NCBI GenBank assembly: GCA_951406725.2
Contig: OX597828.1
Coordinates: 29,202,001-29,266,000 of the forward strand
Length of the DNA stretch: 64,000 bases
Source: Octopus vulgaris
Taxonomy: Eukaryota
Direction: 5' to 3'
The translations under genes were made by a program, and so were the position numbers. The notes beneath the pieces are model-generated. The model was not told the origin of the DNA. It worked only from the letters and a program-made list of their open reading frames with translations, and made no database searches. Position 1 is the stretch's first letter, and the number at the start of each line of letters is the position of its first letter. Shown piece after piece: positions 4,651-60,778 of the stretch.

Positions 4651-5209
4651 CTAAAAGATCAGTTTTGTGAATCTTGGGAGATGGAAATGTACCGGTATTT
4701 CCACGTTTAAAGCAGTAAACTTTCAGATGTTCTGGGAGAGCTGAAATACTGCAAGGAACCACTTTTAATGCAATGTTCTGTGGCATATACACACTTTGTT
4801 CCAATTCTTCTTTCTTCTGAAGCTGTTTAGATGAATATACTTTCTTCACTGGTAAAAATGCAGTCAAATTAGTGCGATTATGGTCTTCAACATCTGAATC
4901 ATCGGAACCAACAGTGTTCTCTACAATTGATTCTGAAATATCACTTATTTTGCTTCTCTCAACAGAATCTTCATGTAACAGAGGTTCTGTAGCCTTAGCA
5001 CGCTGAATAATATCATGACAGCCAAGTTTCTCAAGAAACTTGGTGGTGTCTTCAACGAAGCTGAAGTTATTGACAAGAGCACAGTATTTATGATTTGAGA
5101 GGAGAGAAATCCGAATTGAAGGCCAGAGTTTCCCATAAAGTGGTTTGTAGAACACATCAAAATATTCAAGGGCACGGTCACAGTGTGTTTTTTCTTTGAA
5201 GTGAGTTGC
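4651..5209 (-). CDS. NSUN4: NSUN4 coding exon 2
   Basis: Acceptor ttatcattatag, donor G|gtaagt, 559 nt. ATHFKEKTHCDRALEYFDVFYKPLYGKLWPSIRISLLSNHKYCALVNNF...LKVYCFKRGNTGTFPSP corresponds to human NSUN4 [24 protein letters not shown]...LRCFTFDRGDISRFPP. Confidence 0.95.
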
Positions 5210-5237
5210 CTATAATGATAAAAAACAAAAATATATA

Positions 5238-5662
5238 TTCTTTTATTCTTTTACTTGTTTCTGTCATTTTACTGTGGCCATGCTGGAGCACCACCTTTAG
5301 TAAAGCGAATCGACCCCAGGACTTACTCTTTGTAAGCCAAATACTTATTCTATCAGTATCTTTTGCCGAACCGCTAAGTTAGGGGGATGTAAACACACCA
5401 GCATCGGTTGTCAAGAGATGTTGGGGGGGACAAACACTGACACACTAACATATACACACACACACACACACATACATACATATATATATATATATGTATA
5501 CGATGGGCTTCTTTCAGTTTCCGTCTACCAAATTCACTCACAAGGCTTTGGTCGGCCCGAGGCTATAGTAGAAGACACTTGCCCAAGGTGCCACATAGAG
5601 GGACTGAACCCAGAACCATGTGGTTGGTAAGCAAGCTACTTACCACACAGCCACTCCTGCAC
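5238..5662 (-). mobile_element. SINE family B, full length
   Basis: Reverse complement of 29382-29778; ends about 30 bp from the NSUN4 exon 2 acceptor. Confidence 0.82.
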
Positions 5663-5682
5663 TTATAAATAAAGCACTAAGG

Positions 5683-5753
<71 letters not shown>

Positions 5754-5884
5754 GATGAGTGTATTTTTACCTTGTTAACAATTAACACGGAAAAAAAATA
5801 AATAGTTACCAGGGCAGTGGAATTTTCGAAACATGTGTCGAAAGTAAAAATATTTGATTACACCTGCGTTAACTCCATTTTTTA

Positions 5885-5923
<39 letters not shown>

Positions 5924-6542
5924 TAATTTTAAATATAACAAAGAATTTAGTAAAATAATTTAGTTATCATTAAGCTAGTGTTAAGGACATAAATTGTGAT
6001 GAAGGTTAGGTGGAAGATTTTAATTCAGAACTTTTGCAAACAAGACATTTGTATTACAGAGCCAGAGGTGGTTTCAGGTGGGTTGGTATCATAAGGGTTA
6101 ATACTGTGTCTACATCACAGTTTTTAGATAACATGCATAGGCCAGGTTAGAATCGGTGAACCATATATCCCTGCATGTCACAAGAGGTGAGTAGGAGGGC
6201 TCATATCAGACAGGGCATTAAGTTGTAAAAACATTGCTTCAAAAAGTCCTTTCTATCCCATGCCAATATGGAAAAACATACTTGTGGTCTTGGATTCAGT
6301 CAGTCTCACTCTATAGCACCTTGGGAAACTGAAAGAAGCCTGTCATATATATTTATATACATGTTAGTGTCTGCCTTTGTTTTTTCAGTTTCTACCCCAT
6401 CTCCCCTTAACAACCAGTGTTGATTTGAACCCCAAAACACATGTTTGCAAAGTGAACTTCTTAACCACACAGCCATTCCGTAAAACAAAACATGAAAATT
6501 CCAAACATGTTCATTTAGACATAATTATTTCAGCAAAAAGTG

Positions 6543-23362: not shown

Positions 23363-23691
23363 GTAAGCTTTAAAAGCCTAAGCTTACTGCCATAATTCTA
23401 TGATTTTTATTAATAATAATAATAATAAATAATAATAATAATAATAATAATAATGATAACTGAGAAAACTGCCAAACTGATCGCATACATTTACTATAAG
23501 CTCGTGATGGCCTCGATGAGAGGAGCGTTTTTTTTTTTTTTTTTATGTTGAACTGAGAAAAAAAAAAAAAAATGTTGGGAGAGAACTAAATAGGTGTGTC
23601 TCTCAAAAGGAAAGAAAAGAGAACAACAAGAGCCCCAGTCTGTCTGTCTGCGTGTATGTGCTATTAATAATAATAATAATAATAATGATAA

Positions 23692-24005
23692 TTAATTCTT
23701 TTTTTGGCCATGAAATGACAAATAATAATAATAATAATAATAATTAATTCTTTTATTGGCCACAAGGGCTTGCATAAAAACAACATGAAATGACAAATAA
23801 TAATAATAATAAATTCTTTTATTGGCCACAAGGGCTTACATAATAACAACATGAAATGACAAAATAATAATAATAATTAATTCTTTTATTGGCCACAAGG
23901 GCTTACATAATAACAACATGAAATGACAAAATAATAATAATAATTAATTCTTTTATTGGCCACAAGGGCTTACATAAAAAACAACAGGAAATGACAAATA
24001 ATGAT
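23692..24005. repeat. Minisatellite, about 5 units of about 65 bp
   Basis: Unit AATTCTTTTATTGGCCACAAGGGCTTACATAATAACAACATGAAATGACAAA(ATA)n. Confidence 0.9.
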
Positions 24006-27000
24006 AATAATAATAATGTAATTTTCTTGATTTGTCATTTTAGAGAGATTGGTGATTTATTATTTAATAAACAGCTACTGCCACTAATGACGAGTAATAA
24101 TAATAATAATAATGAATTAGTTATGACTTTAGCATAAGACTGAAATGTTTGCAGAAGCAAGACTATCATCACCAATTATATTATATCGCTCGACATTAAG
24201 ATATTACTGGTACTTAGTTTTTTTTATCTAACTCTCCCACCCCGCCCTCTCCGAGAAGAATGAAAGACGAAGTCGACTCCTGAGTTAATATGTTAATACT
24301 GACAACGATAATAGTAATAATGATAGTCATATGTTTGTTATTTAACCCTTGGAATAGCTCGAATATTTGTTTTTCAACAATATTCGAGCTATTCCAACCG
24401 TGGCAACTCATCCTTTCTTCAAACAGTGTAACTAACACTACATTATTCAGGGTGTACTACATTCTTTTTAAAGACAGTAGGGTGAGATTTGAGAGAAATC
24501 TCTGACTGCCATTTCTAGCAAGTTAAGTGACCACGTATAAAAGGCCTTTCTTAGCTCGCTAATAATAATCGTGACATTGTCTACGATGGCCTTAATAATA
24601 TGACGATATTAATATAATCTTCACACTAGCCAGAGTTCTTATTCCTTTTTTAAAGAAGCAATCGAAAAATCGATCACTTGTGATACGGTTGGATTTTATA
24701 TCTATATCTACGATTCTCTGGATCGTTCATTCTTGCATTTGCCCAAAATTCCGTCCGTCTTCTGACTCAGGAAGCAAAGAGGCCGATGAATTTCCTGTTT
24801 GACTGCTGTACGAACAAATATTTGGGAGAAGTTGTGATGTTCTTGTCAAGGGCGTAATGTAAACGTGATGTTTCCGTGTGAAGTTAACATTTATAAAAAC
24901 AAGTCAACATTAAACTCAAAGATTACTCGTTATTTCTTTTAAAGAGTACTTATTCTTTTTTTACAAAGAAAACGTGGACAGTGTACGTACGCCGTCAGCC
25001 GACCGTTTCCTTGTATAATAAAAAACAACAACATTATACGTACATTGTATGTATGTATGTATGTATATATGTATGTACACACACACGCATATAATTAGTA
25101 AGATACGTCAAAATAGGCATATAATAGAAAAGGTTAATGTTTAGAAAATGACAATTAAGTGCTCATACCGGGACCAGATAACTCAAATCTAACGTCGATC
25201 GAAGAGACAGAATTCGGGCAAGCCCAGAGTTAGCTTTGAGAAATTTGCAGGTCGAGTCAGTGAAAATATAATAAATATAAAGGATGTTGAGGCAGTTGTT
25301 AATGGCTGTGTATGCGTATGAAATGAAAAAATAAACTCAAGTAATTTAATTTACCAAATCGTTGGTGGTGATTTTTATGTTGAAGTATCTTTCTCGGCAG
25401 TTGTTGTTACATACATACATACATACAGACAGACACACAAGCACACATACATGCACGTATACCCAGACTTATGCACGCACACACACATATATCATTACAG
25501 ACCATTAGCATTTTGTTCTATAAGTCTGTGTTGTAGCCATCTGTCACCGACCCCTCCCAATTTGCTAAATAATAATAATAATCTCTCTTCAGGAAAGCTG
25601 GCCAAATAATAATCTCGGTGATACTTTTTTTTATATCAAATAGTCGAAATTTTCAATATTCAATTAATCAATCACTCATACTTGATTGCTTGCTGTCCTA
25701 TAATTCTCTTCAGCTTTTCAATATTGTATTTCACAGCATTTGAATAGAATATTAACCCAATAATATTTCTACATTGGCATTTGAAAACAGCCAGTGTGCC
25801 ATATTCATTTAGTAGTTATATTTAGCTATTTATAAATTAATGCCACATACAGTCTATGTGTAGTTATTTTATTCTTTCATTCTTCTGTGTGAGAAGCATT
25901 GCATCTGGACATTGTTAATCCCTCTGTACACAAGTCTAACTGCCAAACTTGCTTACCGAAGGAGAATATGAAAAACCCATTTGAAAAGAATAGTTTAAAG
26001 TCTTAACACCAATACAGTAATTCTAATATATTTCCAAACTATGAGTTTGTAATAATGGGTTCGAATTTTGGCACAAGGCTAGTAATTTCTGAGTAGTTGG
26101 TAAGTCAATTACATCGACCCCACCCCCCAGTATTTATCGACCCCAAAAGGATGAAAGGCAAAGTCAAACTCGGCGGAATTTGAACTCAGAATGTAAACAT
26201 GGACAAAATGCCACTAAATAGACGACATGCTGCCTTGTCAATTATTTGTATTACTAAAGGTTCATTATTTTTCTCCGTATGAATGAGGTCTCATAAATGG
26301 GGGTTTCACTCTAGCACCCCACCACTACCATTTTGTCTTTTTCCTAGATACTCTTTCCCATCATCATCATCATCGTTTAACATCTGTTTTCCATGCTAGC
26401 ATGGGTTGGACGGTTCGACCGGGGTCTGGGAAGCCAGGAGGCTGCATCAGGCTCTAGTCTGATCTGGCTGTTTTTCTCCAGCTGGATGCTCTTCCTAACG
26501 CCAACAACTCCGTGAGTGTAGTGGGTGCTTTTTACGTGACACCGGCACAGGTGCCAGGGGAGGCTGGCAGCAGCCACAATCGGTTGGTGCTTTTTACATG
26601 CCACCGGCACAGAAGCCAGTCAAGGCGGCGCTGGCATCGGCCACGTTTGGATGGTGCTTTTTACGTGCCACCGGCACAGGTATCACAATTACAATTTCCA
26701 TTTGATCTTTATATAAATTCAGGGAAGCCATGCTGCTTATCTCTGGCATAAAATGACCTCTTCATCCTCTCAAATTCTCTCCACCACCCATGTTTGATTG
26801 AGAAGGGTCCTCCTCCTTTTCCTTGTTCCTTCCTTTCTTGCAAGTACTCGACAACCCCTCTTGTGTCTGTGGCATGAAAACCACACCCAGTACACATTGT
26901 GAAGTGGTTGGCATTATGAAAGGCATCTACCCATAGAAACCTTGTCAAAGTTGACACGGAGCACAATGCAGCTTTGTGGATTTGATCGAACTGTCCGACC

Positions 27001-28217
27001 TCTACCAGTTTGGAAGATGGACATTGAATGGTGATAACGATGATGACTGTTTCATTAGCTTTCAGTGCTAAGTTTAAATCTCTTGCTGGGCTTTAAGAAA
27101 CTGACATTAAAAAGAAAATTACCGTTGTAGTTCTGAACATTTGGTCAGTATCCCAATCTTGTTGGTCATCCAGGTGCAAGCATGGCTGTGTGGTTAAGAT
27201 GTTCACTTCACAACCATGTAGTCTTGGGTTCAGTCCACCTGTATAGTATCTTTGGCCAAGTGTCTTCTATTATGGCCTTGGGCCGACCAATGCTCTTTGA
27301 ATGAAAGTGGTAGATGGAAACCTATCCACTTAACATATTCATATAATATACATACATGCATACATACGTACATACTGTAGTGTTACAGAAACAGAGGTAA
27401 CCTAGGCGAGATGCTATTAAAATCATTCAAGTTCTACTAATAAACAAGATTTCCTATCCTTGCCCTATGTAATCCCTGAAGAAAAAATAGAAATAACAAC
27501 CAAAATTTCCCTGAAGTCGCATCATACCATTCTTAATGGTATTTTTTTCCAATAGAGAGAGAGGGAGGAAAAGTAACAGCAGTGTTCCATGCTAGTAATT
27601 GTACGTTTTTAGACAGGAAAAATTAATAATTTAGTGTTGATTATGAATTTCAGTATGCAAGTTGGAGTCTAGTTTAGTTCCATGTCTTCTGTTGGAAGTG
27701 CTCCATTAATTTGAAAGGCCACTTATAATACCTTTGGCAGTGCTTTATCTTGACCATGATGATGATGGTCATTATCGAACACTTTCTGCCCTTAGATTCA
27801 ACCATAGTTATAGATAGCATTCCATAAGAATACAAACTCTTTTTATATTTTGTGTAACGACTTGTGTTTGCCTGATTGATCTTAAGGGGCCACACAAACT
27901 ACCATTTTTAGTTCAGATAAAATAAGAACCAGCTTTTAAAAGTTGTAGGTACAGGCATGGGTGTGGTAGGAAGTCTGCTTCCCGACCATGTAGTTTTGGT
28001 CTTAGTTCCACTGCCTGACACCTTATGCAAGTGTCTTCTACTACAGCCCTGGGCTGACCAAAGCCATGGGAATGGAAGTGGTAAGCAGAAACTGAAAGAA
28101 ACCTATTGTGTGTGTATGTGTTACATATATATATATATATATAGTGTAATAAATAAAATATATGCAATCATACAAACATATATGTACGTACCGACATCTA
28201 CATGTATATATACATGC

Positions 28218-28252
<35 letters not shown>

Positions 28253-28951
28253 CCATAAAAACCCATGTAATTTGCACAGGTGATTTTCAGGATAAAATTT
28301 GTTAAAACAAGCTTCTGCTTATGTAAAATTCACACCCAAAAGTTTTCAGAATTGCTGATATAGTCGGGGGAAAAAGGTTTTCAATTTAGTTGTATTTAGC
28401 ATAATTTCACTTACTTATGATTAGATTTTATTAAATTTTCATTAAATAAAAATAATTTCTGTTTAACAGGTATCACGTTGTTTATAATAAACTTTATTTT
28501 ACATTTCTTGCCCACAAGAGATTATGTCCGATCTTTAGCATACTGCTGTATGTCCTCTCAAATCATGATCATAGGAAAAGTTGTTGATAAGAATTATCAA
28601 CAGAAAACAAAGCTGATAAATATGCACAGGTGTTGCAAATTAAGTTTAATTACCAATAAACATCAGCTTGGATGACACTTTATTCAACCGACAGAGGAAG
28701 GTGACCGATCAAACTAATTATGTAAACAGAATTCTTTACCGCTTATTCTTGTCGGGACCTGTAGTATGGACTATTGAAATTTTAATCCCTTTTACACTTA
28801 TAAAATATCAAGCTTACTTTAAGATTTGTCATTACTGTTATTGTCAGTATGGGTAGAAATTATGAATCATTTACTGCAAAGGAGAAATTAAATATGTTGA
28901 ATATGCATTTGAATGCGGCAATAGAGCTGCTGGAAGGCATTTTAATGTTAA

Positions 28952-29096
28952 TATTAGGTTGTCCCAAAAGTTCGTAAACACTTACGAAAATTGAAATTTT
29001 ACTCGCCAAGTACTAACAAAAACAGCAAAAATTATTCCTCAAAATAAAGACCATTATTTTCCAAGACTTTCTACGAACTTTTGGGACAACCTTATA
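28952..29096. mobile_element. Mariner-type MITE
   Basis: TIR AGGTTGTCCCAAAAGTTCGTA / TACGAACTTTTGGGACAACCT with TA flanks. Confidence 0.75.
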
Positions 29097-29381
29097 AAAC
29101 CAATGTTCGAAATTGGCGTGAACAGTATGACAAGCTTAAAATAGTGCCTAGTAATAAACAGACAGAAATAAAAACATACAATTAAGATTATCCATATCAT
29201 TACATTTTTTGCAGTCAGGAATATCCATATCCCTATGTATGTCAATGGTGCTCCATTGTGATAGGTAGAAACTCCAAGCAATGTAAAATATGGCCTGGAC
29301 CATGTTTACCAGAAGGAACGTCAGACTTCAAAAAGTGGTTAACCATTTAATGATTTTAGTAAATTTATACAGAAAAAGTAA

Positions 29382-29551
29382 GCAGGAGTGGCTGTGTGGT
29401 AAGTAGCTTGCTAACCAACCACATGGTTCCGGGTTCAGTCCCACTGCGTGGCATCTTGGGCAAGTGTCTTCTGCTATAGCCCCGGGCCGACCAATGCCTT
29501 GTGAGTGGATTTGGTAGATGGAAACTGAAAGAAGCCCATCGTATATATGTG

Positions 29552-29584
<33 letters not shown>

Positions 29585-29778
29585 TTGTCCCCCTAGCATT
29601 GCTTGACAACCGATGCTGGTGTGTTTACGTCCCCGTCACTTAGCGGTTCGGCAAAAGAGACCGATAGAATAAGTACTGGCTTACAAAGAATAAGTCCCGG
29701 GGTCGATTTGCTCGACTAAAGGCGGTGCTCCAGCATGGCCGCAGTCAAATGACTGAAACGAGTAAAAGAGTAAAGAGT
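29382..29778 (+). mobile_element. tRNA-headed SINE, family B (internal TA/TG microsatellite, GAGTAAA tail)
   Basis: TGGCTGTGTGG A-box-like and GGGTTCAGTCC B-box-like head. Related copies at about 5238-5662(-), 39815-40248, 45765-46190, 49040-49399 and 59121-59490, plus many fragments. Confidence 0.85.
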
Positions 29779-31401
29779 ATTATACTGTCCAGTGTAAATA
29801 AAAGTCAACTATGGCAATGAAAGAGTTAAATGATATTTTTCAAAATCTGCAGAGCACTTTAGATACTGCTTACTGTGCAGTGCTTGAGGATCACTGTTCA
29901 AAGGTGTCCTGAGTTGTTAGTAAATAGTGTCTCTTCATTATGTTACAGACGTCTGTCTTGTTTACAACTAACCAGATTGCTAATGAAATACACTGCCGAT
30001 GTGCTTTCCATTAATGTCGAAAATAATCAAGTCTGGAAGAATTTAGTAAAATGACTAACTTCTATTAATGAGTTGGTGTTCGGGACATAAAAGAAGGATT
30101 CAGAAATAAAATTATGACAAAGTTTTAATTGAAAATATGAACACCAAAGCATTAAGTTTTGTTTCATAGAAACAGAGACAGCTTCAGACAAATTTGCTAT
30201 TAAGATTGTTTCAGCTGTAAAAATTAGTTCATATGATTTGCTGTTGTAATTATAAAATGACAGAAGTTCTCAATCTGCAAGTGAGTCAAATCTAACTTGC
30301 TGCCTGAGACGGCTTCCTACTGTTTAAACTTTCTTTTATGTTATCTTGTCTTTGTTCCTCTGGGGATTGAGGACATCATCATCATCTAATGTCAACTGTT
30401 GCTTGCATGTGTCAGATGGAATTTGTTGAGACAGATTTTCTACAGCTGAATGCCCTTCATGTCACCGGCCCTCATCTGTTTTCAAGCATGGAAGACAGTA
30501 AACAAACAAACATCACTTGTATGATAGTGATGTTCATTTACAACCATCACATGATGTTAAGACAAGCACACCCACACATGTTTATGTATACATATACAAA
30601 GGGCTTCTTCCAGTTTCTGTCTTCCAAATTCATTCACAAGGCTTCTGTAAGCCCAAGTCTATAATAGAAGACACTTTTCCAAGTTGCTACACAGTGGGAC
30701 TGAACTCAAGGTAACTTGATTGGGATGCAAGCTTCTTAACCATGCAGCTATGCTTGTACCTACATTCTAAATACCAGTAATATATAGAGGTCAAGCAGAC
30801 TTACTGTACCCCTGCTGTTGTTAGAATGCCAGACAAAATGCTTTGCACTCTTCATTTCCATTCCTTGTGTTTTCTATTCAAATCTTGCCAAGGTTAACTT
30901 TACCCTTCATTCTTCTTGCATTGATTAGTAAAGCTCTGCTTTCGGGCAGTGGACCAGCATACCAGATTTGATGATGCCTTCTGGTATTTGTTCAGGCTGT
31001 TTGTGTTATGAGTTCAAATCTCACCATGGCCTATTTGGTTGGCAGACTTAATTTATCTCCTAGTTTAAGACCACCACCTGATACCTTGAGTGCTTTTAGC
31101 TGAGTCCACACTGAGGCAAGCATTTGGGCCTGATCTCTTCTTCCCTCCCTTTAGTTTTAGGGCCACTCAAAAGGTTACACACAAGTTTTTCTCCTGGTCA
31201 AGGGATAAATAAATTATTAAATTATCAAAGTTGAAATACTATTTCTCTCTTGATCACCAGATTTTGAACAACATCAAACCTAGTTAGTATTTAGATGGTT
31301 GACACCTTGACATAGACACACTCATATATGCCTATACACTCTCATACCTGCACACACACACATGCTGTGTGTGTAAGGTTGCAGCTGATCAGTTGGTAGT
31401 G

Positions 31402-31547
<146 letters not shown>

Positions 31548-31856
31548 GTGTGTATATATATATCCGACTCGTGGCCGATGCCAGCACCGCCTCGTCTGGC
31601 TTCCGTGCCGGTGGCACATAAAATACACCAATCCGACCGTGGCCGTTGCCAGCCTCGCCTGGCACCTGTGCAGGTGGCATGTAAAAAGCACCCACTACAC
31701 TCACGGAGTGGTTGGCGTTAGGAAGGGCATCCAGCTGTAGAAACACTACCAGATAAGACTGGAGCCTGGTGCAGCCTTCTGGCTTCCCAGATCCCCGGTC
31801 GAACCGTCCAACCCATGCTAGCATGGAGAACGGACGTTAAACGATGATGATGTATA

Positions 31857-32092
31857 TGTCACCTTGACCGACCAGTCCGTCAGGCGTCCATTTGACACCG
31901 CTGGTCACAGCACACTGTCCACTCCTCTCTGGATCGTGCCTTTCTCATCCACGTGATCCCAATCGTCCTCCTGAAATCATAATTCCACCATTGTTTAGGT
32001 CTTCCGGGTAGTCGTTTCCACTCACGCGGGCACCACTCGACAACTGCGTGGGTCCACCAATTATCGGTGAGCCGGGTGATGTGTCTGGCCTA
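31857..32092 (-). mobile_element. RTE LINE 3' fragment (third family)
   Basis: Minus strand ARHITRLTDNWWTHAVVEWCPREWKRLPGRPKQWW..DF..TIGITWMRKARSREEW. Confidence 0.75.
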
Positions 32093-32717
32093 ATGATTAG
32101 GAGTGTTGCACTCAGAATTGCAAGATCATGGTTTCAGATCAGTAGCTGCATTGTGTTCTTGAGCAAAACAGTTAATTTCACACTGGCCCATTCTACTCAG
32201 CTGTTAACTTGTAACCCTTAACTTAACTGTGCAACAAACAGAGAACTATATGATAAGTATCACACTTCAAAACAGGTATTTGGATTGCTATAATTGATTA
32301 ACCCTTCAGGGCAGGGCGCCAGCATGACCACAGTGCTCCAGTCCAGTCATCTGGCAAAAATGAGTTGTACCTGTATTTCAAAGGGCCAGTCTTGTTAAAT
32401 TGTGTGTCATGCTGAATTTCCCTTAGCACTACATTAAGGGCACGCATGTCTGTGGAGTACTCAGCCACTCTCATGTTAATTTCACCAGCAGGCTGTTGAT
32501 TGGATCAACTGGAACCCTTGTTGTTGCAACTGCTGGAATGCTTGTATGTGCAGATGTGGGGCCGCACAGTAAGAAGTTTGCCTTCTAACCACATGGTTCT
32601 TGATTCATTTCCATTGTGTGACACTTTGGGCAAATGATTTCTGCTGTGGCTGCTATAGCTTTGGATTGACCAAACCCTTGGATTTGGTAGATGGAAACTG
32701 AAAGAAGCCTATCATAT

Positions 32718-32760
<43 letters not shown>

Positions 32761-33025
32761 TCATTCTTGTTTTTGTTTTTGTATACATTCATTTGCTTTT
32801 CCCAGAAGCTTAATGCTCTGATGCTTTCCAGATTTGAGTGGTCTCGGGTAAAAAAGCGCAAAACTGCTACAACTTTCTGGACACTGACTGACAAGGAAAT
32901 CAGCTGTGAATGGCCCGTGTATCTTGTTTTTGTCCAGTTTCTCGTTTGTTATCATCTATTTTTCCGTATGTTGTATTTTGTTGGATTTCCACTTGTTTTG
33001 TTCTTTCTGTCCTACCTTTGATTTA

Positions 33026-33391
33026 TCTCTCTTTATATAAATGGCAAAATGTCTGTCTGTGTGTATCCTTTATACAAATCCACAATTTTTCAGTTAGAAG
33101 GCTTGCACTTTCTATGGTCATTCAAAACTGTCCAAGGGTGGTCGTGCACGTCTTTACATTTCCCTAGTCACCCCACAAAGCCATTAAAAAATCAATAGAA
33201 GTGACTTTTTTCTGAATTTTCTATTCAAAACCCAATCAAAGTGCCTGAAACTTGATATGCCAATTGAATGCCAGCTAGCTGTATGTGATTGGTCAGATAT
33301 TTGGACAGTACTCGCGTGTATGTGGGCAAGCACGCAGCTGTATATGCATGCACTAGCACTATGACCCAGCGTTGCTGGGTCATAGTGCTAG
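33026..33391 (+). mobile_element. Non-autonomous Helitron (second family)
   Basis: A|TCTCTCTTTATATAAA start like 19578; hairpin GACCCAGC-GTT-GCTGGGTC; CTAG|T end. Confidence 0.72.
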
Positions 33392-34056
33392 TATATATAT
33401 ATTTGTCTGTGTGTGTTTGTGTCTGCTTGTCTTAATATCATGTTATAGTTGTAAATGAGTATCACTGTCATACAAGCAGTGTTGTTCTTTACAATGTTTT
33501 GCAAGAATTTGTCTCACCTTGGGGAAATATTACCTTGCTTAGAAAGAGGTGAGGGTTGGTGACAGGATAGGCATTCAGTCATAGAAAATCTGCCTTAATA
33601 GCTCCATCTGACACCTGCAAGCAAGGGTAAATGAGTGTTAAAATACTGATGATGATGGTGTTGACCAAACTTTATCAGGTGCTTACCAGCAGAGATTCCT
33701 TTGTTTTACTAATCAATCAATATATAACAAATCTAAACATTCAGAGAAATATCTTATAAACTCAATACCTGTTTTTAATTGACAAGACTCTCTATACTTC
33801 TTGTACTGGTCTCTTTGTAAAATGTGCTTTTCTCTCTCTCTCTTCTTTGTTTCTTACTCTGACCTGTTTTGTACTGTTTGCAGTTGTTATTCATACCACT
33901 GCAACATATAGGTCCATAAAAAGAAATTATATTTTGTCACTTAGGAATGAGAACACTGCTGTTACATACATAACTAAGAAAGATGCCATGTTGTGGCACC
34001 ACATTTAAGAGACTTAGGTGATCATATTAAATGTGGTACTTATCTTAGTCTGGTAC

Positions 34057-34885
34057 TATTGGGTCATCCCATAAATAATGCTGTTTTTTTTATGCTTCTT
34101 TTATTTTTCGGAATTGAGATAAAACAAAGTACTTTTTTAATCTAAAATATTTTCTCCTTCATTTTTCTACAATGCTCTTCCACATATCTGGTAAACTTGC
34201 AAGGTCCCTCTTCCAAAATTCCCTTGTCTGTGACAAAAATACTCCTCCAGTACTGTTCTGACCTCGTCTGCAGAATTCCTATTTTTTCCATCCAAATGAT
34301 TTTGAAGACTGCAGAATAAATAATAATCAGATGAGGCAATGTCTGGCGAATATGGTGGATGGGGCATCATTTCCAATTCAAACTGCTCCAGCCTTTGGAA
34401 TGTCATCCTCACTGTATGTGGCCAAGCATTATCCTGATTGAAGAACACCTTTCACCTTGAAACCAAAGATGGTCTTTTTCTTCTGGCACTGACTTACGAA
34501 AGTTCAAAGTGGACCAAACCTTTCATATCCCACCAAACAGATAACAACACCTTATGTGGGAGAAGATCATCTTTAGCCTGGGGTGCCAGTGTTTCTCCTG
34601 TCCTTGCCCACTGTCTTTGGTGATTGACATGTCTATAGAGGACCCATTTCTCATCACCAGTTGCTATTCAGTCCAAAAAAGGTTCATCCGTGAGACATGA
34701 CAGCAAAGAAGAGCACACATTCACTCTCTGCACCTGATTAGACTCAGAAAGTTTGTGAGGAACCCATTGACCTAATTTTCTGATTTTTCTGATGGCATGC
34801 AGGTGCCGATGAATGGCTGAACGACCAAATCTGAGTTACCCTGCTAGTTTTCCTCAACAGTTATGATGGGATTTTGTTCCACCAG
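34057..34885 (-). mobile_element. Decayed mariner (DD34D) transposon, 3' half
   Basis: QDNAWPH...HPPYSPDIASSDYYLF with 34 residues between the Asp residues; TIR TA-TTGGGTCATCCCATAAATAATGC at 34057; stops and frameshifts. Confidence 0.9.
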
Positions 34886-36398
34886 GGTTTGCATGCCGGG
34901 CGAAATGCTTAGCGGTATTTTGTCTGCCAATATGTTCTGAGTTCAAATTCTGCTGAGGTCGACTTTGCTTTTCATTCTTTTGGGTTTGATAAATTAAGTA
35001 CCAGTTGAACAATGGGGTTGATGTAATGGCTGCCTTTGTGGCAAAATTTGAAACCATTTATTCACATTGTTTTCAATTCATCCTGTGTTATCTCGCAGCT
35101 TCAAGATTTTGATGATGTGATTGTTTATTTTGAGAATGACAGTTGTAGGGTAGGTGTGAGAGGCCAGACCTGGCCTGTGTCTGAACATAAAGCAGGTAGA
35201 TGGCTGGATATGGTTGGTTAAATACCAAAAGTTTTATTGAAGAAATATATTTCTGATAGCAGTGATGATAATACCCAATTAAACGCCTTACAGAATTTGA
35301 TTCTGATCCTTAACATTTTGTGTTCAAATCAGGCTGAAGTCGGTCTTGTCTTTTTTATAATTCTAGAGTCAATAAAAGGGCAGTGAGCTGGTAGAATCAT
35401 TACCATGCTGTTGGCAAAATGCTGAGTAGCATTTCTTCCAGTTCTTTGCATTGTGAGATCAAATACCACTGAGGTTGACTTTACATTTCATCCTTTCGGG
35501 GGTCAATAAAATAAAGTACCAGTTGAACCCGGGGCGGGGGATAGGGTCGATGTTATTGACTTAACCCCTTCCTCTCAACATTGCTGGCCTTGTGCCAACA
35601 TTAGAAAGAATTTTAGTCAATGAATAAAAAAAATAAATGTTCAAGTAACATACAATCAATTTAAAACTTTCCTTTAACAAGGAATAAAAAATTGTCTTTG
35701 TCCTCATTTCAGAAATCAATATATCAACATTGTTGTCATCATAATGTTCTTCTTTTTTTAGTTTTGTTGTAATGGGTTGGATAGGTTTGCTGTCTACAGA
35801 CACATCACTTCATCATTCATTTTGACTTTTTGCCAAATCACCTTTGACGGTTTATCATTCTGTATCACTTCTCACATTATATTATCCAATGTGTTTGTCT
35901 CTGTTTTTAGAAAGTAGGTTGTGAATTAATAGAAATTTGTCTACCTCCTATGGGTCTGGTGCAGAAAAACCAACATGGGTCCCTCATACCCCCTGAGGGT
36001 TGTTAGTATTTCAAAATGTGCCAGAAAGAGAGAAAAATTTATGGTTTATTAAAATCAATCTAGTAGATTAAAATGATCCAGTTAACTAATTCTTAACTAC
36101 TAATTCTTCTAAATGTACCAAGACCTTTATCATTCTACACATTCTGTCTTTTACTTGTTTCATTCATTGGACTGTGGCCATGCTGGGGCCCCCACCTTGA
36201 AGGGTTAGTCGAATAAGTCACACCCACCACATATTTTTTAATTCTGGTTCTTATTCTGTTAGTCTTTTGCTGGTCTGCTAAGTCACGAGGCTGTGAACAA
36301 ACCAACAGCAATTGTCAAGCTGTGGTGGGGTATAAACACAACACACAAAAGACACACACAGAGATATGTGTGTGTATGTGTATGCGCGTGTGTGTGTG

Positions 36399-36433
<35 letters not shown>

Positions 36434-37222
36434 AGCTCTACCTTCGAATGTCCTGTGAAGATGAATTTTATTTTCACAATTATTTTGTAGACAGTATTTG
36501 GCAATGGATGCAGAAATGGCCGTAAGGTTTGTTATGTCTGATGCCTTGTCCTCCCAGGATTAAAAAATAAGCTATAAATGTGGTCCAATCGATGTGTCTG
36601 TTAATCTGAGGTTTTCTCCATTTTCTGATTATTTGTATTTGTTTCCTGATAAACTCTTGTTTATTCTGTTGTTACCTGCACTCTACGTGTATAGTGTGCC
36701 TGCACACCTATGCCTGATGAGGATACGGGTAATGGATACCAATAGTACATTGCACACACATCTTATCCCTTAGTGTGTGTATATACTATATATATATATA
36801 TATCAGTTTACACTATATGTGTGTATGTGTGTATGTATATTTATTATATAAAATCCATTGCCGGTCTGTGTGTGTGTCTTCTCGGATCTCGGGCATCCTC
36901 CATCCATTGCACACTCAAATTTTATATGTAGATACCATGGTGTCAGGGCGTCTATAAGTCTTGAAAAAATTACAAAAATCGATTCCAGGTGAGAATGCGA
37001 TCGATAAAGCTGTGGGAACGTGCACTTGTACGCACAAGTACTTCAGCTGATGCGATCGATACTACGCGTACGCGAGAAAAATGCACGTGCAGTTTGCGCA
37101 AAATCGCTGGCTGGCTTGAAATGCCACAAAATGGGACAGTCGGACAAGTTGTTTTGAGAAAATTTGGTTTAAATGTTTGACAACTCAGCACTGTCCATTG
37201 GACGTGGCGGTGTTTTACTTGT

Positions 37223-37258
<36 letters not shown>

Positions 37259-37387
37259 TGAGAGAAGGACGGGATGGACACTTCATTTTTGTGCTGGTAC
37301 CGCATTATGTCGTACGCGACTGAGAGGATTTGCATCCCCAACGTAGAATTTTTGATGTAATACATGTCCTTGAAGTAGTAATTGTGC

Positions 37388-37465
37388 GCGGCTAAAGAAG
37401 GCCATAGACACACATTATGCATTGTTGTAAATCTGTCTAATAAAGGCCCGAAACATATGTACTGC
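37388..37465 (+). ncRNA. Degenerate hammerhead motif (core G5>A)
   Basis: GCGG-CTAAAGA-A-GGCC-ATAGACA...TGTCTA..GGCCC-GAAA-CATATG-TA-CTGC: all three stems present, palindromic ACATATGT stem III, core reads CTAAAGA instead of CTGAAGA. Confidence 0.6.
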
Positions 37466-40010
37466 TGAATCCTTGGCATCATGTTTTTATTTTGATTAAT
37501 ATATATATATATATATATATACGAGAGGCATCTGTGTTTGCGTCTCCTTGTCATGATATGGGATAGTTATAAAGAATGCCACTGTCATTCTAGCAGTGTG
37601 CTTTGTTTCATGTCTCCTGTGTGGACATGTCCAGCCATAACAGAATATTAGCTTGCTTGAAGACAGTTGAGGATTGGTGACAGGAAGGGCATCCAGCTGC
37701 AGAGAATCTGCCTCAATGATTTCTGTCTGACCTATGGAAACATGAACATTAAACTGCTGATGATGATGATGTGATGGAAGTTGACTCAGTAATGAATATG
37801 ACCATTGCTTGTTTAATGAGTTGCACAGCGAAGGTAAATTTTTTTTAGCCTGACGAACTGCAGCCTTAACCACAGTGATCAGATAAACGTCTTTTCTCAG
37901 TTAAGTGCATTATAGTTGGGTGAGAAAGTACATCATGCCAGATATCAAAGCCTTTACAACTGAATCTCTACTATTGTTAAGAATTGAAGCTCTACAACTG
38001 CTTTGCTAAATATCTTTATTATCAGCACTATTGATCAGAAACATACATAACGTTGCTTGCCTTTAGAAAGATATGATAAATTGTTGACACTGTAGCAGCT
38101 GTTAATACAATGACATGAAATAGGCTTCAGTTATTTAAAGCTGTGCCTTACTTCAAACTTTCTTCATTGTGAAGCTTCTAAGCTAAAACAGATAAAATGC
38201 CACTTAAAGATCATTGCTGTTGTTTGACCCCTTAGGGTTAGGGTTAGGGTTGATCATGCAGATGTATGACCAAGATATATTTCAGCTGTGACCACCCTGT
38301 TTTTTTTATTTCTGATATTTGGCGTTAGGAAGGGCATCCAGCCCTAGAAACACTGCCAAATCTGACTGGGCCTGATGAAGCCTTCCGGCTTCACAGACCC
38401 CAGTTAAACCGTCCAACCCATGCTAGCATGGAAAACGGACGCTAAATGATGAAAAATGATATTAGGGTATATTTTATCTGATGTGTGCTTTCCTGTTTTC
38501 AAGTTAGTAAAAGTGAGATTTGAGATTAGTGGATCAAATGATGGCATAGAAACTTCCTTTGGGGTATATTTATTTCCAACCATTGGTGGGGTAGTTTACT
38601 TTGTGGGTGGTTAATTTACTTTTCGGATTTCAGATATCATGATGATGGTTAGTTAAATTAGGTGTTTCCAAAATGGTTGATATAGACCCCTGAGGGTCAA
38701 TGAGATTATTCAAGGGGTCGATAAATGCACATCTACTTAATTACTATTATTATTTATTTATTTTCTTGTACATGCCTGGGAGTCGATGAGGGGTCAAGGA
38801 TTTCATGAAGGGGGGTGGATGGTTTAAGAAGTTTGGGGACCCCTGAGTTAAATATTTTTTGTGGGTTTTATGTGAATTATCGTGCTTGCCTCAAACTGTA
38901 TTTTGTATGGGTTGGATATGAACAAAACCAAGCCATTAAAATGACTGTCTTACGTATGAGCCAGTGAAGGAATCTGTACAACTTGTTCAGTCAGTCAGCC
39001 AAATATAGCAGCTAAGTTCCCTTCAAACTGACACTTTACTGTAGTAATAATGGAAGGATATACAGGATAATGTAGCCTGAAATGCATTGATGACAAGAGT
39101 GACAGGTTAGATATGGCTAGAAGGTATTTCATTTTGATTCACTTGATGAAGGTCGACCTGGGGTTAAACAGCAACTTATTAAGAAAACAATTGCATTAAG
39201 AACAGACTAATAAGGAAGCCTCTACTTGGTCGTTCAGCCTGCTAGAAATAGCAGCCAAATCTTTCTTAACTTTCACCCTACGGTTTTAAAAATGGAATGG
39301 CATACCAGAAAGTGTAGCCCTTGGTATATACTTTGTGTGTAAAAAAAAAAAAAAAAAGGCAGGATGGTCATAGGTAGAATGTCTATGATCATGAGAAAAA
39401 AATGTCCTGGAGCTCAACAACAAGAACAGTTCTATTGTGTACTTTGCAGCATAGGAAAATAATAATGGGTCAAGTGATGGAAACATGTAATTTTGTGGTG
39501 ATACAAATGGAAAGTTGGGAATTTGATCTTGCTATGATTAAAATACAGTCTGCATAGATCATTGTTGCCATAGAGGAGATTGCTTAAACTGATTAAGAAG
39601 CTAGGACTAAACATATGAGAAGGTCATTGGTTTCTTTTTTTTTTTATTTATTATTGTTTGCTTTTTGTTTATTGTTGAATAACCACAACCACCCCACTCG
39701 CCTCATTCATCTCTTCTAGAATAGATCTTATGGCATGCTGGCAGATCAGATGTAATCAAATAAATTTGTTTGAGAAATGTCGTCTTTAATTAAGGTGACA
39801 GCTGGTTCCAAGATTAGCTGTGTGGTAAGAAGTTTGCTTTCCAACCCCATGGTTCTGGGTTCAGTCACACTGTGTGACGCATTAGGCCTTCTACTATAGA
39901 CCCAGGCTGACAGAAGTGTTGGGCAGGTGTCTTCTACTATAGCCTTGGGCTGACCAAAGCCTTGTGAGTGGATTTGGTAGACAAAATCTGAAAGAAGCCT
40001 GTTGTGTATA

Positions 40011-40045
<35 letters not shown>

Positions 40046-40323
40046 GTATGTGTGTTTGTCCCCCCCCCCAGCATCGCTTGACGACTGATGCTGGTGTGTT
40101 TATGTCCCCGTAACTTAGTGGTTCAGTGAAAGAGACCGATAGAATAAGTACAAAGCCTACAAAGAATAAGTCCTGGATTCGATTTTCTCGACTAAAGGTG
40201 GTACTCCAGCATGGCCGCAGTCAAAATGGCTGAAACAAATAAAAGAATATCTATCTATCTATCTATATATATATATAATATGAATAAAAAATGGAGTTAA
40301 CGCAGGTGTAATCAAATATTTTT

Positions 40324-40409
40324 ACTTTCGACACATGTTTCAAAAATTCCACTGATACTATTCAAAAGAATAAATGGTATAAACAATGCAATCTTCTCCT
40401 CAGGAAAGT
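40324..40409 (-). ncRNA. Type I hammerhead ribozyme motif (inverted twin of 40451-40531)
   Basis: Reverse complement has the same stems and core with a loop II that is 5 nt longer. Confidence 0.85.
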
Positions 40410-40450
40410 GAAAAAAACGAAACTCGTCAATAAGACATTTCGTTTTTTTC

Positions 40451-40531
40451 ACTTTCCTGAGGAGAAGATTGCATTGTTTATACATTCTTTTGAATAGTAT
40501 CAGTGGAATTTTTGAAACATGTGTCGAAAGT
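40451..40531 (+). ncRNA. Type I hammerhead ribozyme motif, long stem II
   Basis: Stem I ACTTTC/GAAAGT; core CTGAGGA 40457-40463; stem II GAAGATTGCATTG/CAGTGGAATTTTT (12 of 13 positions pair); GAAA 40514-40517; stem III ACA-TG-TGT; GTC cleavage triplet ending 40525. Confidence 0.85.
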
Positions 40532-40624
40532 AAAAATATTTGATGTTACAACACCTTTACTTGTGAGATTTTTGCTGCCCGGTAACTATTTATTTTTTCC
40601 GTGTTAATTGTTAACAAGGTAAAA

Positions 40625-40687
<63 letters not shown>

Positions 40688-41331
40688 TACATAGATATAT
40701 ACATATATATGTCATCATCATCAACATCATTATTTTATATCTGCTTATCCATGCTGGCATGGATGGAACATTTTGAGAGAATTCAACTGGTCAGAACCAC
40801 ATCTTCCTCCAATGTTGTGTCCCATTTTTTGGCTTTGTTTCTACAGCTGTGTCCTTCCTAACACTGACAGTTTTACATAACGCAATGAGTACATTTTTCA
40901 TGGTGCCAGCTGTAAAGTTTACCATGACATCAACAAGAGTAAAGAGTCCTCTTGAATCGAGTCTTGTTGCTATTTGTATTGATTACCAAATACTTAGTCT
41001 GTACTGAATGCCTTTTTGTGTCTCCAGAACTGTTATGGTACAGTTGACCTTGGAAGAATTTGAACTCAGAGTTCAAAAGGGCTGTAACTAAATACAGCCA
41101 TGTATTGTCTGATGCTCTAACAATTCTGCATTTCACCATCTTTATCTTTTACTGGTTTCAGTCACTGCACTATGGCCATACTGCTGCATCACCTTGACGG
41201 GTTTTGTCAAACACATTGATCCCAGAACTTGTTTTATTTTTTTAAGCTTATTCTGGTTTTTAAACTTATTCAAATGGTTTCAAAGCGAGGGGAATCTCAG
41301 AAGTGGTAAGATCCAAGTGAGGTGTATAATG

Positions 41332-41535
41332 TTAATCCAAACAAGAAAACACAAAAAAACACAACGCGAGGACGTGGAATAAATATAGTATTATTGGATG
41401 CTCAGGAAAGGAGGAAAGAAGGAAGGTTTAACGTTTCGAGCGGAGCTCTTCGTCGGAAACATAGGAGAAGGAAAGATCCAGAGAAGGGAAGACAGAGGAA
41501 AAAAAATCGCCAACGGTACACACGAGGTCACATTT
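41332..41535 (-). mobile_element. 204-bp non-autonomous element carrying a minimal hammerhead, with 14-bp TSD
   Basis: Flanked by direct repeat TGAGGTGTATAATG at 41318-41331 and 41536-41549. Confidence 0.75.
41426..41460 (-). ncRNA. Minimal Penelope-type hammerhead motif
   Basis: Minus strand GTTT-CCGACGA-A-GAGC-TCC-GCTC-GAAA-CGT-T-AAAC: 4-bp stem I, CYGANGA core (U4C variant), 4-bp stem II and palindromic ACGT stem III. Confidence 0.72.
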
Positions 41536-43284
41536 TGAGGTGTATAATGCTGGCTACTCTTCAGGCCAAGGATATCTTGATTAGATTAAAGGCTACATTG
41601 TCGCAAGCAGGTACATGTTGATGCAAAGTTATACATATTCATGATGGACTCTTTTCATTTGTTATCTACCATATCCACCCAGAAGGCCTAGGGCTATAGT
41701 AGAAGACACTTGCCCAAGGTGCCATGCAGTGGGACTGAACCTTCAACCATGTGGCTGGGAAGCAAACTTCTTACCACACAGCCATACCTGTACCTATGTT
41801 TCAATTAATTAAAAAAATAACAAAGAATAAAGTAAAATAACCTTGTTTATTATTAAGTTGATGCATGGAACAAAAATGATCAAGAAATTTTCATTGGAAA
41901 TCCTAATTTAGATCACTCTAAAATAGGAAACTTGTATTTTCAAACCAGGGAAAATTTCAGTTGGGCTGGTATCTAAAGGGTTAAACAACAACTCCAGCAA
42001 CCTGTCATTAATCTGAAATTATACTGTGAGTTTGTGTGTGTTCCAGTTTTGTCATTGATTGATTAATGTTTTATTAATGTGTTTAGAAACTTTTGCGTGT
42101 TTGTATAACCCCACCAATTTCATTGTCACAATCTGGTGCACTAATTAACTCAAGACGGTAGTAAAGATTTGATGCCATTCACTAATTAGATGTTTGTTTA
42201 CTAATCTTAGTCTTTTTCCAAGCTTGAAATTTGATTTTTCATGTTTCTGGAAGGAATTTGTGTCCCTTTACAAACACTCTAAGGAATACGAAAATTTATG
42301 GGTGAAGGCATGGCAGTGTGGTTAAGAAACCCACTTTGGCACCTTGAGTAAATGTCTAATGTCTTTCCTATAGCCTCAGGCTTACCAAAGCCTTGTGAAT
42401 GGATTTGGTAGACAGAAAGTGAAAGAAGCTTGTCATATGTATGTGTGTATATGTGTCTGTGTGTTTGTGTATATCCATGACATCATGTGATGATTGCAAA
42501 GGAGCATCAACATCAAACAAATAATGTTCATTTCCAGTCTTCCATGTCTGTTCATGAGGAAATATTACTTTGCTTGGAAATAGGTAAGGGTTGGCAACAA
42601 GAAGGGCCTCTGGCCATAGAAAATTTCAATAAATTTTGTCTGACCCATGCAAGCATTGAAAAGTGGACGTTAAATGACGATGATATTTCATTCAGGTTTT
42701 CAAATGGAATTCATAACTAACTATGAATATCTTTTGGTTATATCTCTCTTAAGGATGTGGGCATGACTAGGTAGTTAAAAAGTTCACTTCACAACTATGT
42801 GGTTCTAGTTTCAATCCCATTGAACTTCTCCTGAAGAAAATTCTAACTGGGCCCCACCTGCAAGGTCATGCGCTGTTTATCTTGATATGAGACCACCTTG
42901 TCATGCACATATGGTTGTAATGCTTGTGCTTGGTGTATACTTATCAGATGGGTAATCATGATGGGTATACTGGGCTTCGTATAATTGTACTCCAGGGTCA
43001 CTTTGATGGCATGTGCTGCTCTCTCACTCAATAATAATAACGATGCTTTTTAATTTTGGCACTGGGCCAGCAGTTTGTGAGGGGAGGGAGAAGTCAATTA
43101 CATTGACCCGAGTATTTGACTGGTACTTGTTTTATCAACCCCAAAAGGAGGAAAGTCAACCTTGGCGGGATTTGACCTCAGAACATAGACAGATGGAATG
43201 CTGCTAACCACCAGCTCACAACCTTTAATAATAATAATAATAATGATTTTATTTATTTACCACAAGGGCGAAAGATGAGAGGAC

Positions 43285-43317
<33 letters not shown>

Positions 43318-44128
43318 CATCATCATCATCGTTTAGTGTCCGCTTTCCATGCTAGCATGGGTTGGACGGTTCAACTGGGGTCTGGGAAGCCAGAAGGCTG
43401 CACCAGGCCCAGTCTGATCTGGCAATGTTTCTACGGCTGGATGCCCTTCCTAACGCCAACCACTCCGTGAGTGTAGTGGGTGCTTTTTATGTGCCACTGG
43501 CACAGGTGCCAGACGAGGCTGGCAAACGGCCACGATCGGATGGTGCTTTTTACATGCCACCGGCACAGGGGCCAGGCGAGGCTGGCAACAGCTATGATCA
43601 GATGGTGCTTTTTGCGTGCCACTGGCACGAGGCCAGTTGGGGCGGCGCTGGCGACGGCCACGTTCGGATGGTTCTCTTACATGCCACTGGCACTGGTATC
43701 GCAGCTACAATAATAATAATAATGATAATGATAATCCTTTCTATTGTAGGCACAAGGCCTGAAATTTGCAGGGAAGGGACAGGTTGATTATATTAATTTC
43801 AATACTTGGCTAATATTTAAAATTCTCAGTTCCACATTCAGCTCTAACTACAGTCACTTTTCTTTCGGTGGTTGTTGTTAATTTTTATATTTGCATAGAT
43901 CTTTTTTTTACTGTTGACTGTTTGCTATGGTTATTGTTAATCAATCAGCTTTGAACGAGCTGTGCACCTTGTTTAGAGACACGTCACAATGTCTGTCGTG
44001 GAGCCTGAATTAATGACCATGCGGTCAGGAGATCAATACCTCGACCACACTCACGTTGTGTGTGTCTGTGTGTGTCATCTTTACTTGGTGAGAAAATGTC
44101 TAAATGTTTATTTTCTTTCTATTTGCAG

Positions 44129-44202
44129 CTGTGAAGCGTCTAATGAAAGAGGCACAAGAACTGAAAGATCCAACTGAGTTATTCTATGCCCAACCATTAG
44201 AA
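44129..44202 (+). CDS. UBE2J1: UBE2J1 coding exon 2
   Basis: tttgcag|...|gtaagg, 74 nt; (A)VKRLMKEAQELKDPTELFYAQPLE. Confidence 0.96.
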
Positions 44203-48523: not shown

Positions 48524-49409
48524 AGTATATAAGCAACCGAGTATTCCACATTCATGTGTACCCTTAATGTAACCAACCCCCTTGCAGAATCACTACAGCT
48601 ATATGTGTGTGTGGTTAAGGATGGGATAAATGTTCATAGCTAGAGATATGTGTAGGCGAGAAGCTAAGTTGGTGTCATGTGTTCGCTTTGTATACGAGTG
48701 TGTGAGTGTATGGTTGACAGCTTGCATGAAGACTGGCTTTAGCGTAATGTGTATTGTCTGTATAGTTATGCTGTGTGTGTATGTGTGTATTAGTTAAGAT
48801 ACATAGCTCTGATAGTACAATAGTGAGACATACTTCTATAGCGTGCTGTGTTCTATCAGGTAATCATTTAGGTTTAGGCTATACAAGCTCATCTGACAAT
48901 TGTATTATCAAAGGTATGGAACTTAGAGCAGCTGACATTTAAAGCCTTTTTATATTAAATGATATTTATCTTTCATTGGATGGAGTAGCTTTTCTGTTGG
49001 TCCCATTAATAATGGATTATATATATATATATATATATTACGTGGCATCTTGGGCAAGTGTCTTCTGCTATAGCCTCGGGCCGACCAATGCCTTGTGAGT
49101 GGATTTGGTAGACGGAAACTGAAAGAAGCCTGTCGTATATGTGTATGTATATATATATATATGTATATATGTGTGTGTGTTTGTGTGTCTGTGTTTGTCT
49201 CCCTAGCATTGCTTGACAACTGATGCTGGTGTGTTTACGTCCCTGTCACTTAGCGGTTCGGCAAAAGAGACTGATAGAATAAGTACTGGGCTTACAAAGA
49301 ATAAAGTCCCGGGGTCGATTTGCTCGACTAAAGGCGGTGCTCCAGCATGGCCGCAGTCAAATGACTGAAACAAGTAAAAGAGAAAGAGAGTAAAGAGTAA
49401 TGTATGTAT

Positions 49410-59120: not shown

Positions 59121-59490
59121 TAGGCGCAGGAGTGGCTGTGTGGTAAGTAGCTTGCTTACCAACCACATGGTTCCGGGTTCAGTCCCACTGCGTGGCATCT
59201 TGGGCAAGTGTCTTCTACTATAGCCTCGGACCGACCAATGCCTTGTGAGTGGATTTGGTAGACGGAAACTGAAAGAAGCCTGTCTTATATATGTATATAT
59301 ATATATGTATGTGTGTGTATGTGTTTGTCCTCCTCGCATTGCTTGACAACCGATGCTCGTGTGTTTACGTCTCTGTCACTTAGCGGTTCAACAAAAGTGA
59401 CCGATAGAATAAGTACTGGGCTTGCAAAGAATAAGTCCCGGGGTCGATTTGCTTGACTAAAGGCGGTGCTCCAGCATGGCCGCAGTCAAA
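59121..59490 (+). mobile_element. SINE family B
   Basis: High similarity to 29382-29778; flanked by repeated ATACTGTAACTTTGTCA near 59083 and 59490. Confidence 0.8.
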
Positions 59491-60778
59491 TACTGTAACT
59501 TTGTCATGATATATATATACATATATATGTGTGTCTGTGTGTTTATGTGTTCCCCACTGCTGTTTGGCATCCAGTGTTGGTTTGTCTATGACCTTGTAAC
59601 TTCGTGGTATGAAAATAAATACCAAACTTTAAAAAAAATAAGTACTGGTGTTGATTTGCTTGACTAAACTTTTTAAAGTGTTGCCCCAGCATGGCCTGAA
59701 AAAAGTAAGAGGCACACCTAATGCCAGCCTAATAAATTCACTTCACATTTGATCTGATCTGATCTGATTTTGCCACAAACAAAACCATCGGAGATGTCTG
59801 GGAGACAGAAACTGTGTGGAAGTGTATCAGATGTTTGTCTTTTTTTTTGTGTGTGTGTGTTTTACTTGTTTCAGTCATTGGATAGCGCCCATGCTGGGGC
59901 ACCACCTTGAAGGGTTTTAGTCAAACAAATCAACTGCAGGTCTTGGTGTTCTAAGCCTGGGGCTTATTCTATTGGTCCCTTATTACCGAACTGCTAAGAG
60001 ATGGGAGACATAAACAAACTGATTCCAGTTGTCAAGAAGGATGCACGCACTGGGCTTCTTTCAGTTTCCATCTGCCTAATCCACTCACAAGGCTTTGGTT
60101 GGCCTGGAGCTATAGTAGAAGGCACTTGCTCAAGGTGCCATGCAGTGGGACTGAACCTGGAACCATGTGGTTGGGAAGCAACCACATGATGCTGCTGCAT
60201 GGCATTTTGGGCAAATGTCATTTACTATAGCTCTGGGTTGACCCATACTTTGTGAGTAAAATTGAGAACCTGTATTGAGCCTATTGCTTGGATTGTGTCC
60301 ATAATGTAAAAGGTACAGCCTTGTCACAAACCTCGTCACAAAGATTCTGCTTGTGAATTACATTAAGGGTATACTTACATATTAATTCAGGAGCAGATAA
60401 TTCAGTCGAAGTCAAACAACTGAATCCTCATTGCTGCATGACAAATTTGGAAGAATGTAGAATAAAAATACTCTTTTGTATTCAGTTACATCTTTTTACA
60501 CTGATGGTAATTTTACTTTCACCTTTCCGATGTTGATAAAATGTATACTGAAGTACTGGGGTCAGTAGAATTGATTGAAACTGTTGATGGCGGTTCTTCT
60601 TGGTATGGTCACAATCCATTGACAGAAACCATTCAAAGAACAAAAAAATATTTAACTTTTTACAGTTAAGTATTTTCTTTTGAGTTGGCTGCTGGGACCA
60701 CTTGTATGGTTTTGGTTCAGGCATTGACAGCTGAATGGCCCCAATGTGTGTATGTGTGTGTGTGTGCGCGCACGTATA

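Follow-up and report, generated by a model that had tools for sequence, protein, structure and literature searches.

A head-to-head Penelope-like element insertion with twin hammerhead motifs in an intron of an octopus E2 gene

The inverted insertion and its host gene

The window analyzed here, a 64,000-nt stretch of Octopus vulgaris contig OX597828.1 (positions 29,202,001 to 29,266,000), carries a UBE2J/Ubc6-class E2 gene on its + strand. The ATG exon, a short one at 23332, ends in a phase-1 donor, the next exon starts at 44129, and the first coding intron spans 23363..44128 (+). The first-pass annotation had placed a palindrome in “UBE2J1 intron 1.” These exons bear out the intronic position. 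For the gene label, a later exon finds its best match among UBE2J2/Ubc6-class E2 structures in the PDB, which places the gene in that class. The insertion lies about 17 kb from the intron donor and about 3.5 kb from the acceptor.

The insertion exceeds the palindrome, occupying about 350 bp (40278-40629) between a (TA)n/(TATC)n microsatellite on the left (40256..40277) and a (TA)n microsatellite on the right (40630..40682). It consists of two fragments of the pLTR of a Penelope-like element (PLE), for which we number positions across the family with C3 of the hammerhead core as 0. The left arm (40278..40440, minus strand) is a 5′-truncated copy of family positions -37 to +125, as aligned by BLAST to the pLTR of a more complete element (L041, see below). 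It differs from the reference at 1 position in 146 nt and ends at the family “short” end (+125), adjoining (TA)n. The right arm lies on the + strand and falls into two parts, the first (40438..40544) covering pLTR -19 to +92, with 5 nt deleted from loop II, and the second (40545..40629) covering +178 to about +265, the “long” end, which abuts (TA)n. A skip of about 85 nt over the +125 site separates the two parts, and the arms meet in a 3-nt overlap (40438-40440). No target-site duplication is discernible at the flanks. Very high-copy short interspersed repeats lie to the left of the insertion (40088-40273 and about 39800-40000), with further copies at 5241-5463, 29558-29767, 49168-49379, and 59302-59491.

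Within the insertion, the inverted arms of about 110 bp and the 15-nt spacer described in the first-pass annotation were both recovered. Each arm contributes 107 paired bases in two blocks of 100% complementarity, 40311-40371 with 40484-40544 (61 nt) and 40377-40422 with 40438-40483 (46 nt). There are zero substitutions between the arms; one 5-nt indel makes the left arm 5 nt longer than the right. The central spacer (40423..40437) is pLTR sequence confined to the left arm. The hairpin is predicted to fold at -169.2 kcal/mol (z of -29.6 against 200 shuffles), and matches to Rfam microRNA models merely reflect it, so we discarded a microRNA reading. A MITE was rejected because the arms point outwards from the center, have unlike end types, and match a retroelement pLTR, and a tandem retrozyme because the copies lie scattered and are linked to an RT ORF.

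We also considered whether the palindrome could be a mirror chimera introduced by assembly or library construction. Across 40400-40480, no listed contig piece from four short-read assemblies crossed the palindrome center, and the three joints of the locus, including the +92/+178 joint of the right arm, occur in 0 of the 119 other loci compared. However, contig sets of this kind drop low-depth paths between high-copy nodes. Moreover, no mirroring extends into the flanks, an indel and unlike end types distinguish the two arms, and the same layout is found at 21 other loci that have junctions of their own. An artefact is therefore very improbable.

Hammerhead motifs within the hairpin

Each strand of the palindrome encodes a type I hammerhead motif: one on the pre-mRNA strand at 40451..40531 (+), with C3 at 40457, U11.1 at 40513, and C17 at 40525, and one antisense to the host pre-mRNA at 40324..40409 (-), with C3 at 40403 and C17 at 40330. 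Both have a 6-bp stem I, CUGAGGA, a 13-position stem II with one mismatch and three wobbles, GAAA, a stem III of ACA-UG-UGU, and GUC, and all 15 core nucleotides are canonical in both. When the window was simulated 60 times with a Markov model, the motif scan returned 0 matches. Rfam reported no hammerhead here, with 0 matches at the gathering threshold and none among 28 E-value matches. The sole further scan match in the window, at 268-221 on the minus strand, has CUGACGA, a 4-bp stem II, and a 5-bp stem I, and is unrelated in sequence to the palindrome’s hammerheads.

The claim that each strand holds a complete, core-intact hammerhead stands for the core, the stems, and the C17 sites, but had overlooked two features. 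First, the first stem II pair is a G10.1-U11.1 wobble in both arms instead of G10.1-C11.1. Position 11.1 is C in 57 of the 63 sampled copies and U in 5, and C accounts for 92-99.9% of the summed contig depth in four runs. This pair has been termed highly conserved (PMC4209133). Because natural 10.1-11.1 mismatches are described (PMC3088659) and a diverged relative, L121, has G-U at this position alongside a near-perfect stem II, the wobble probably lowers activity rather than excluding it. Second, stem III is of the dimer type, an 8-nt self-complementary motif that offers just 2 bp in a monomer, and a minimal PLE hammerhead did not cleave as a monomer in the assays described in PMC4209133. Taken by itself, the motif folds no more stably than its shuffles (z of -1.25). 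Two diverged relatives, L091 and L121, have a long, better-paired stem II with compensatory changes together with a palindromic stem III, which suggests that the hammerhead fold was once under selection in the element lineage.

The suggestion that the earlier-transcribed antisense arm masks the ribozyme is supported by folding, which was modeled at equilibrium with RNA alone, leaving aside proteins and tertiary contacts. In context the catalytic fold trails the hairpin by a computed 116 kcal/mol and is not predicted to be reached. Once transcribed, the 5′ strand of stem I pairs with the antisense arm with a probability of 0.98 and the core with 0.95-1.00, and this pairing is predicted to set in before the ribozyme is complete.

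Repeat-directed and intronic A-to-I editing is widespread in cephalopods (PMC9068888), and the hairpin is likely an ADAR substrate, as are other cephalopod repeats. We found no literature report of a hammerhead ribozyme gated by A-to-I editing in an intronic inverted repeat. The idea that editing could shift the balance toward the catalytic fold did not hold up in the model: with all 49 antisense adenosines read as G the hairpin remains ahead by 81 kcal/mol, and with all 49 made unpairable by 27 kcal/mol, while editing of the sense arm would strike five invariant core adenosines. Because the gap persists after full editing and the core would itself be edited, editing is not predicted to free the ribozyme.

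Family 5′ ends show no excess at the cleavage site, with 6 junctions against 6 at a matched control site 12 nt upstream. The cleavage site has 6 matches, every one an inversion junction; of the 9 at the control site, 6 are inversion junctions and the other 3 are internal deletions. On this basis, ribozyme-cut RNA was rejected as a preferred template.

These results bear on the possibility that the host has co-opted the insertion as a latent pre-mRNA ribozyme, activated once the hairpin is opened by ADAR editing, a helicase, or a protein. The canonical core, the fold retained in L091 and L121, and the breadth of cephalopod editing are all compatible with such a switch, as is protein assistance of a PLE hammerhead in vitro (PMC11167929). 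Set against them are the energy gap of 27-81 kcal/mol that survives full editing, the damage editing would do to the core, a stem III that requires a second ribozyme, the minority U11.1 variant, and the lack of any 5′-end excess at the cleavage site. In addition, this is a young copy, and twin hammerheads are frequent among the family’s loci (8/58, see below). We regard co-option as highly unlikely, and the latent ribozyme proposed for the pre-mRNA is instead predicted to be locked in the hairpin. The insertion is likely an ordinary and inert one.

The element family and its clade

The arm sequence is repetitive (44 matches at 93-100% identity, with 40 scored of 1180 candidates), and the 14-mer spanning its CUGAGGA core has 356 exact matches genome-wide, compared with 6 for a control. 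Both arms match the pLTR of L041, a near-full-length element that carries the same inverted 5′ pLTR, which bears out the PLE-type inverted pLTR origin proposed in the first-pass annotation. L041 consists of an inverted pLTR (2873-2664), a pLTR (2870-3242), an interrupted ORF (3285-5543) encoding an RT (DKT, RWL, YRDD) plus a C-terminal GIY-YIG, and a second pLTR (5510-6060). A single RT and GIY-YIG-like ORF thus lies between pLTRs, the arrangement of EN+ PLEs. Pfam returned no domain in this ORF, for which six homologs were found, the closest named proteins being from octopods. Directly 5′ of the L041 PLE is a Tc1/mariner-type transposase ORF (L041:1096-2115; Pfam HTH_Tnp_Tc3_2 and DDE_3).

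Translations of the L041 family contain SDKT, RIRWL, and CLLCNSE, as expected of the Hydra clade, whose marks are DKT in place of DKG, an RWK-type motif, the lack of CCHH, and a CxxC next to the conserved E, and compared by eye the L041 motifs fit the clade’s description and alignment in PMC8557442. The family shares with the clade as described there a C-terminal GIY-YIG, DKT, an RW motif, YRDD, a CxxC beside a conserved E, an ORF under 3 kb, (TA)n targets, and a type I hammerhead. It differs in having RWL instead of RWK and in lacking the CxCX5C linker. The motifs and the six homologs support assignment to a young family of Hydra-clade Penelope-like elements. An octopus member of this clade, Hydra-1_Obim, was reported by Craig 2021 (PMC8557442), the only publication on octopus Penelope hammerheads that we found. 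The 49-54-nt stem II of our family is unlike that of the Hydra-1_Obim hammerhead listed there, and by sequence comparison this is a different family, although it may already be cataloged in Repbase or Dfam.

The CxCX5C zinc-finger linker has been proposed to direct Hydra PLEs to (TA)n. No CxC was found in any of 34 translated family linkers, some of them overlapping or out of frame, whereas the linker is present in homologs P0001, P0004, and P0005. An asparagine-rich stretch occupies its place in the family (L041:4008-5543 and other copies). The family thus lacks the linker, yet (TA)3 abuts 78 of 79 family ends, in keeping with the (TA)n targets of Hydra elements.

A sister subfamily has a U4C core (CCGAAGA) and is the largest by exact 14-mer matches genome-wide (548, control 36), ahead of CUGAGGA; a CUGAAGA core is the least frequent of the three (265, control 17). 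Copies of the U4C subfamily (e.g., L107-L114) keep the rest of the motif, some with GUA at the site. U4C is reported to lower hammerhead activity considerably in vitro (PMC3088659), and this, together with the abundance of the subfamily, suggests that cleavage is dispensable for spread.

Paired ends and the origin of the inversion

To gauge how common inverted insertions are, we took the first 60 listed loci with the core 14-mer, on contigs C1-C3 with 1 kb on either side; 58 were family members. Pieces on both strands occur at 29 of these, and a full hammerhead on both arms at 8. Genome-wide, head-to-head pairs of cores are spaced 10-70 nt apart in three cases, including the palindrome locus, and 71-300 nt apart in seven. 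Twin-hammerhead inverted pLTRs are therefore routine in the family. The class itself is already published, with opposite-strand twin hammerheads in PMC4209133 and inverted pLTRs in PMC8557442, and a view of the palindrome as unusual is not supported. In truncated Schistosoma PLEs, dual opposite-strand hammerheads lie 100-700 bp apart (Cervera and de la Peña, 2014; PMC4209133). The octopus arrangement has in common with them the opposite strands, this spacing, and a small helix III whose palindromic sequence implies a dimer. The octopus copy departs from the Schistosoma motif as described in that its helix I has the canonical 6 bp, its helix II is much longer, positions 9 and 10.1 have no extra base between them, and its first pair is G-U.

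After two both-strand loci classed as “far” were set aside, 27 head-to-head junctions could be scored. Twenty-one join one short end (about +125) to one long end (about +272), none joins like ends (short with short or long with long), and the remaining 6 involve a cut-off, internal, or decayed end. The resulting tail, present on one end only as in EN+ PLEs, measures 147 nt. At 10 of the 21 short-plus-long loci the long arm ends at position +126 or a later one; the arms there have no overlap, which excludes either being copied from the other. The 5′ ends are nearly equal at several twin loci (-45/-46 at L063 and -44/-47 at L096), and by eye 4 of 13 twin loci, the palindrome locus among them, have rare variants present in both arms. 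The excess of unlike over like junctions points to two-site priming of both target strands. A single RNA template would explain why long arms stall near +125, why 5′ ends nearly coincide, and why variants are shared.

Taken together, the locus is very probably a recent, doubly 5′-truncated, head-to-head insertion of a Hydra-clade PLE pLTR into an intronic (TA)n tract, likely formed by two-site priming of both nicked strands on one donor RNA, with a ribozyme predicted to be locked in a 107-bp hairpin and to have no host function. As read from genomic end positions only, the GIY-YIG nuclease would cut both target strands, two cDNAs would start at +125 and +272 on the donor RNA, and their 3′ ends would join through the 3-nt microhomology. 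The -19 to +92 segment of the right arm would come either from the second cDNA, the 85-nt skip arising later or at the same time, or from fold-back of the first cDNA followed by a jump onto a short +272 cDNA, which would fit this locus equally well. In the pre-mRNA the antisense arm would be made first and would pair with the ribozyme piece by piece during its synthesis, and the hairpin would be spliced out with the intron.

We consider it improbable that the mirror arm arose wholly by fold-back self-priming or later gene conversion, without two RNA priming sites. Arms free of substitutions, U11.1 in both of them, and the near-equal 5′ ends at L063 and L096 are what such copying could leave, and junction palindromes in rotifer Penelopes have been read as self-priming (Arkhipova, 2013; PMC3846280). 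However, only the left arm has -37 to -20 and +93 to +125 and only the right arm has +178 to +265; because each arm contains sequence absent from the other, pure fold-back does not fit the palindrome locus. Conversion and fold-back also sit poorly with the zero arm overlap at 10 of the 21 loci, and a tally of 21 unlike and 0 like pairs of ends is not expected from fold-back by itself. Partial fold-back is already accommodated within two-site priming.

EN+ PLE units with an inverted, 5′-truncated pLTR and a one-sided tail of 30-40 bp are described by Arkhipova (2013; PMC3846280) and in Figure 2 of Craig (2021; PMC8557442). Head-to-head arms, a short junction overlap, a one-end extension, and a pLTR hammerhead are common to these units and ours; our tail is the longer, at 147 nt against 30-40 bp, and the rule of one long and one short end is here counted (21/27, 0 like). 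The latter paper names the way PLEs come by their inverted ends and tails as a question still to be answered. In the in vitro system of Poseidon PAc (Frangieh, 2024; PMC11167929), RT starts at two sites, both strands are nicked and extended, and the hammerhead is unnecessary for insertion. Our reading of the octopus family shares with this system a pair of internal RT start sites by which the tail is defined, an AT-rich target, and the extension of both strands. Poseidon PAc belongs to another clade, however, and inverted junctions were not reconstituted in the experiments reported, whereas in octopus they are inferred from genomic ends.

A broader proposal is that the family’s inversions record an obligately asymmetric twin priming, in which a dimer of the PLE enzyme on one RNA would use two fixed sites 147 nt apart to prime the nicked (TA)n strands, so that a short end would be matched with a long one in every inversion. 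This would operate without the zinc-finger linker, and the largest subfamily would spread with its U4C core. We advance it tentatively, as an idea slightly more open to doubt than to belief. If true, the family would be a genomic test bed for PLE inversions, tails, and the need for a ribozyme. The palindrome locus itself matters little, being one of many such insertions with a ribozyme predicted to be silent, and the family is of modest importance, the short-plus-long end rule being the part worth keeping. The end rule, the missing linker with TA targeting retained, and the U4C subfamily yield countable predictions for an in vitro system.

Two further arrangements of the family were observed. 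A second, smaller head-to-head insertion lies in the window at 5747-5891, with short and long ends and the 3′ half of the hammerhead only. Near a contig end, L042:4756-6903 holds two identical-looking 1090-bp units in tandem, each consisting of inverted and sense pLTR fragments joined by a (TA)n run.
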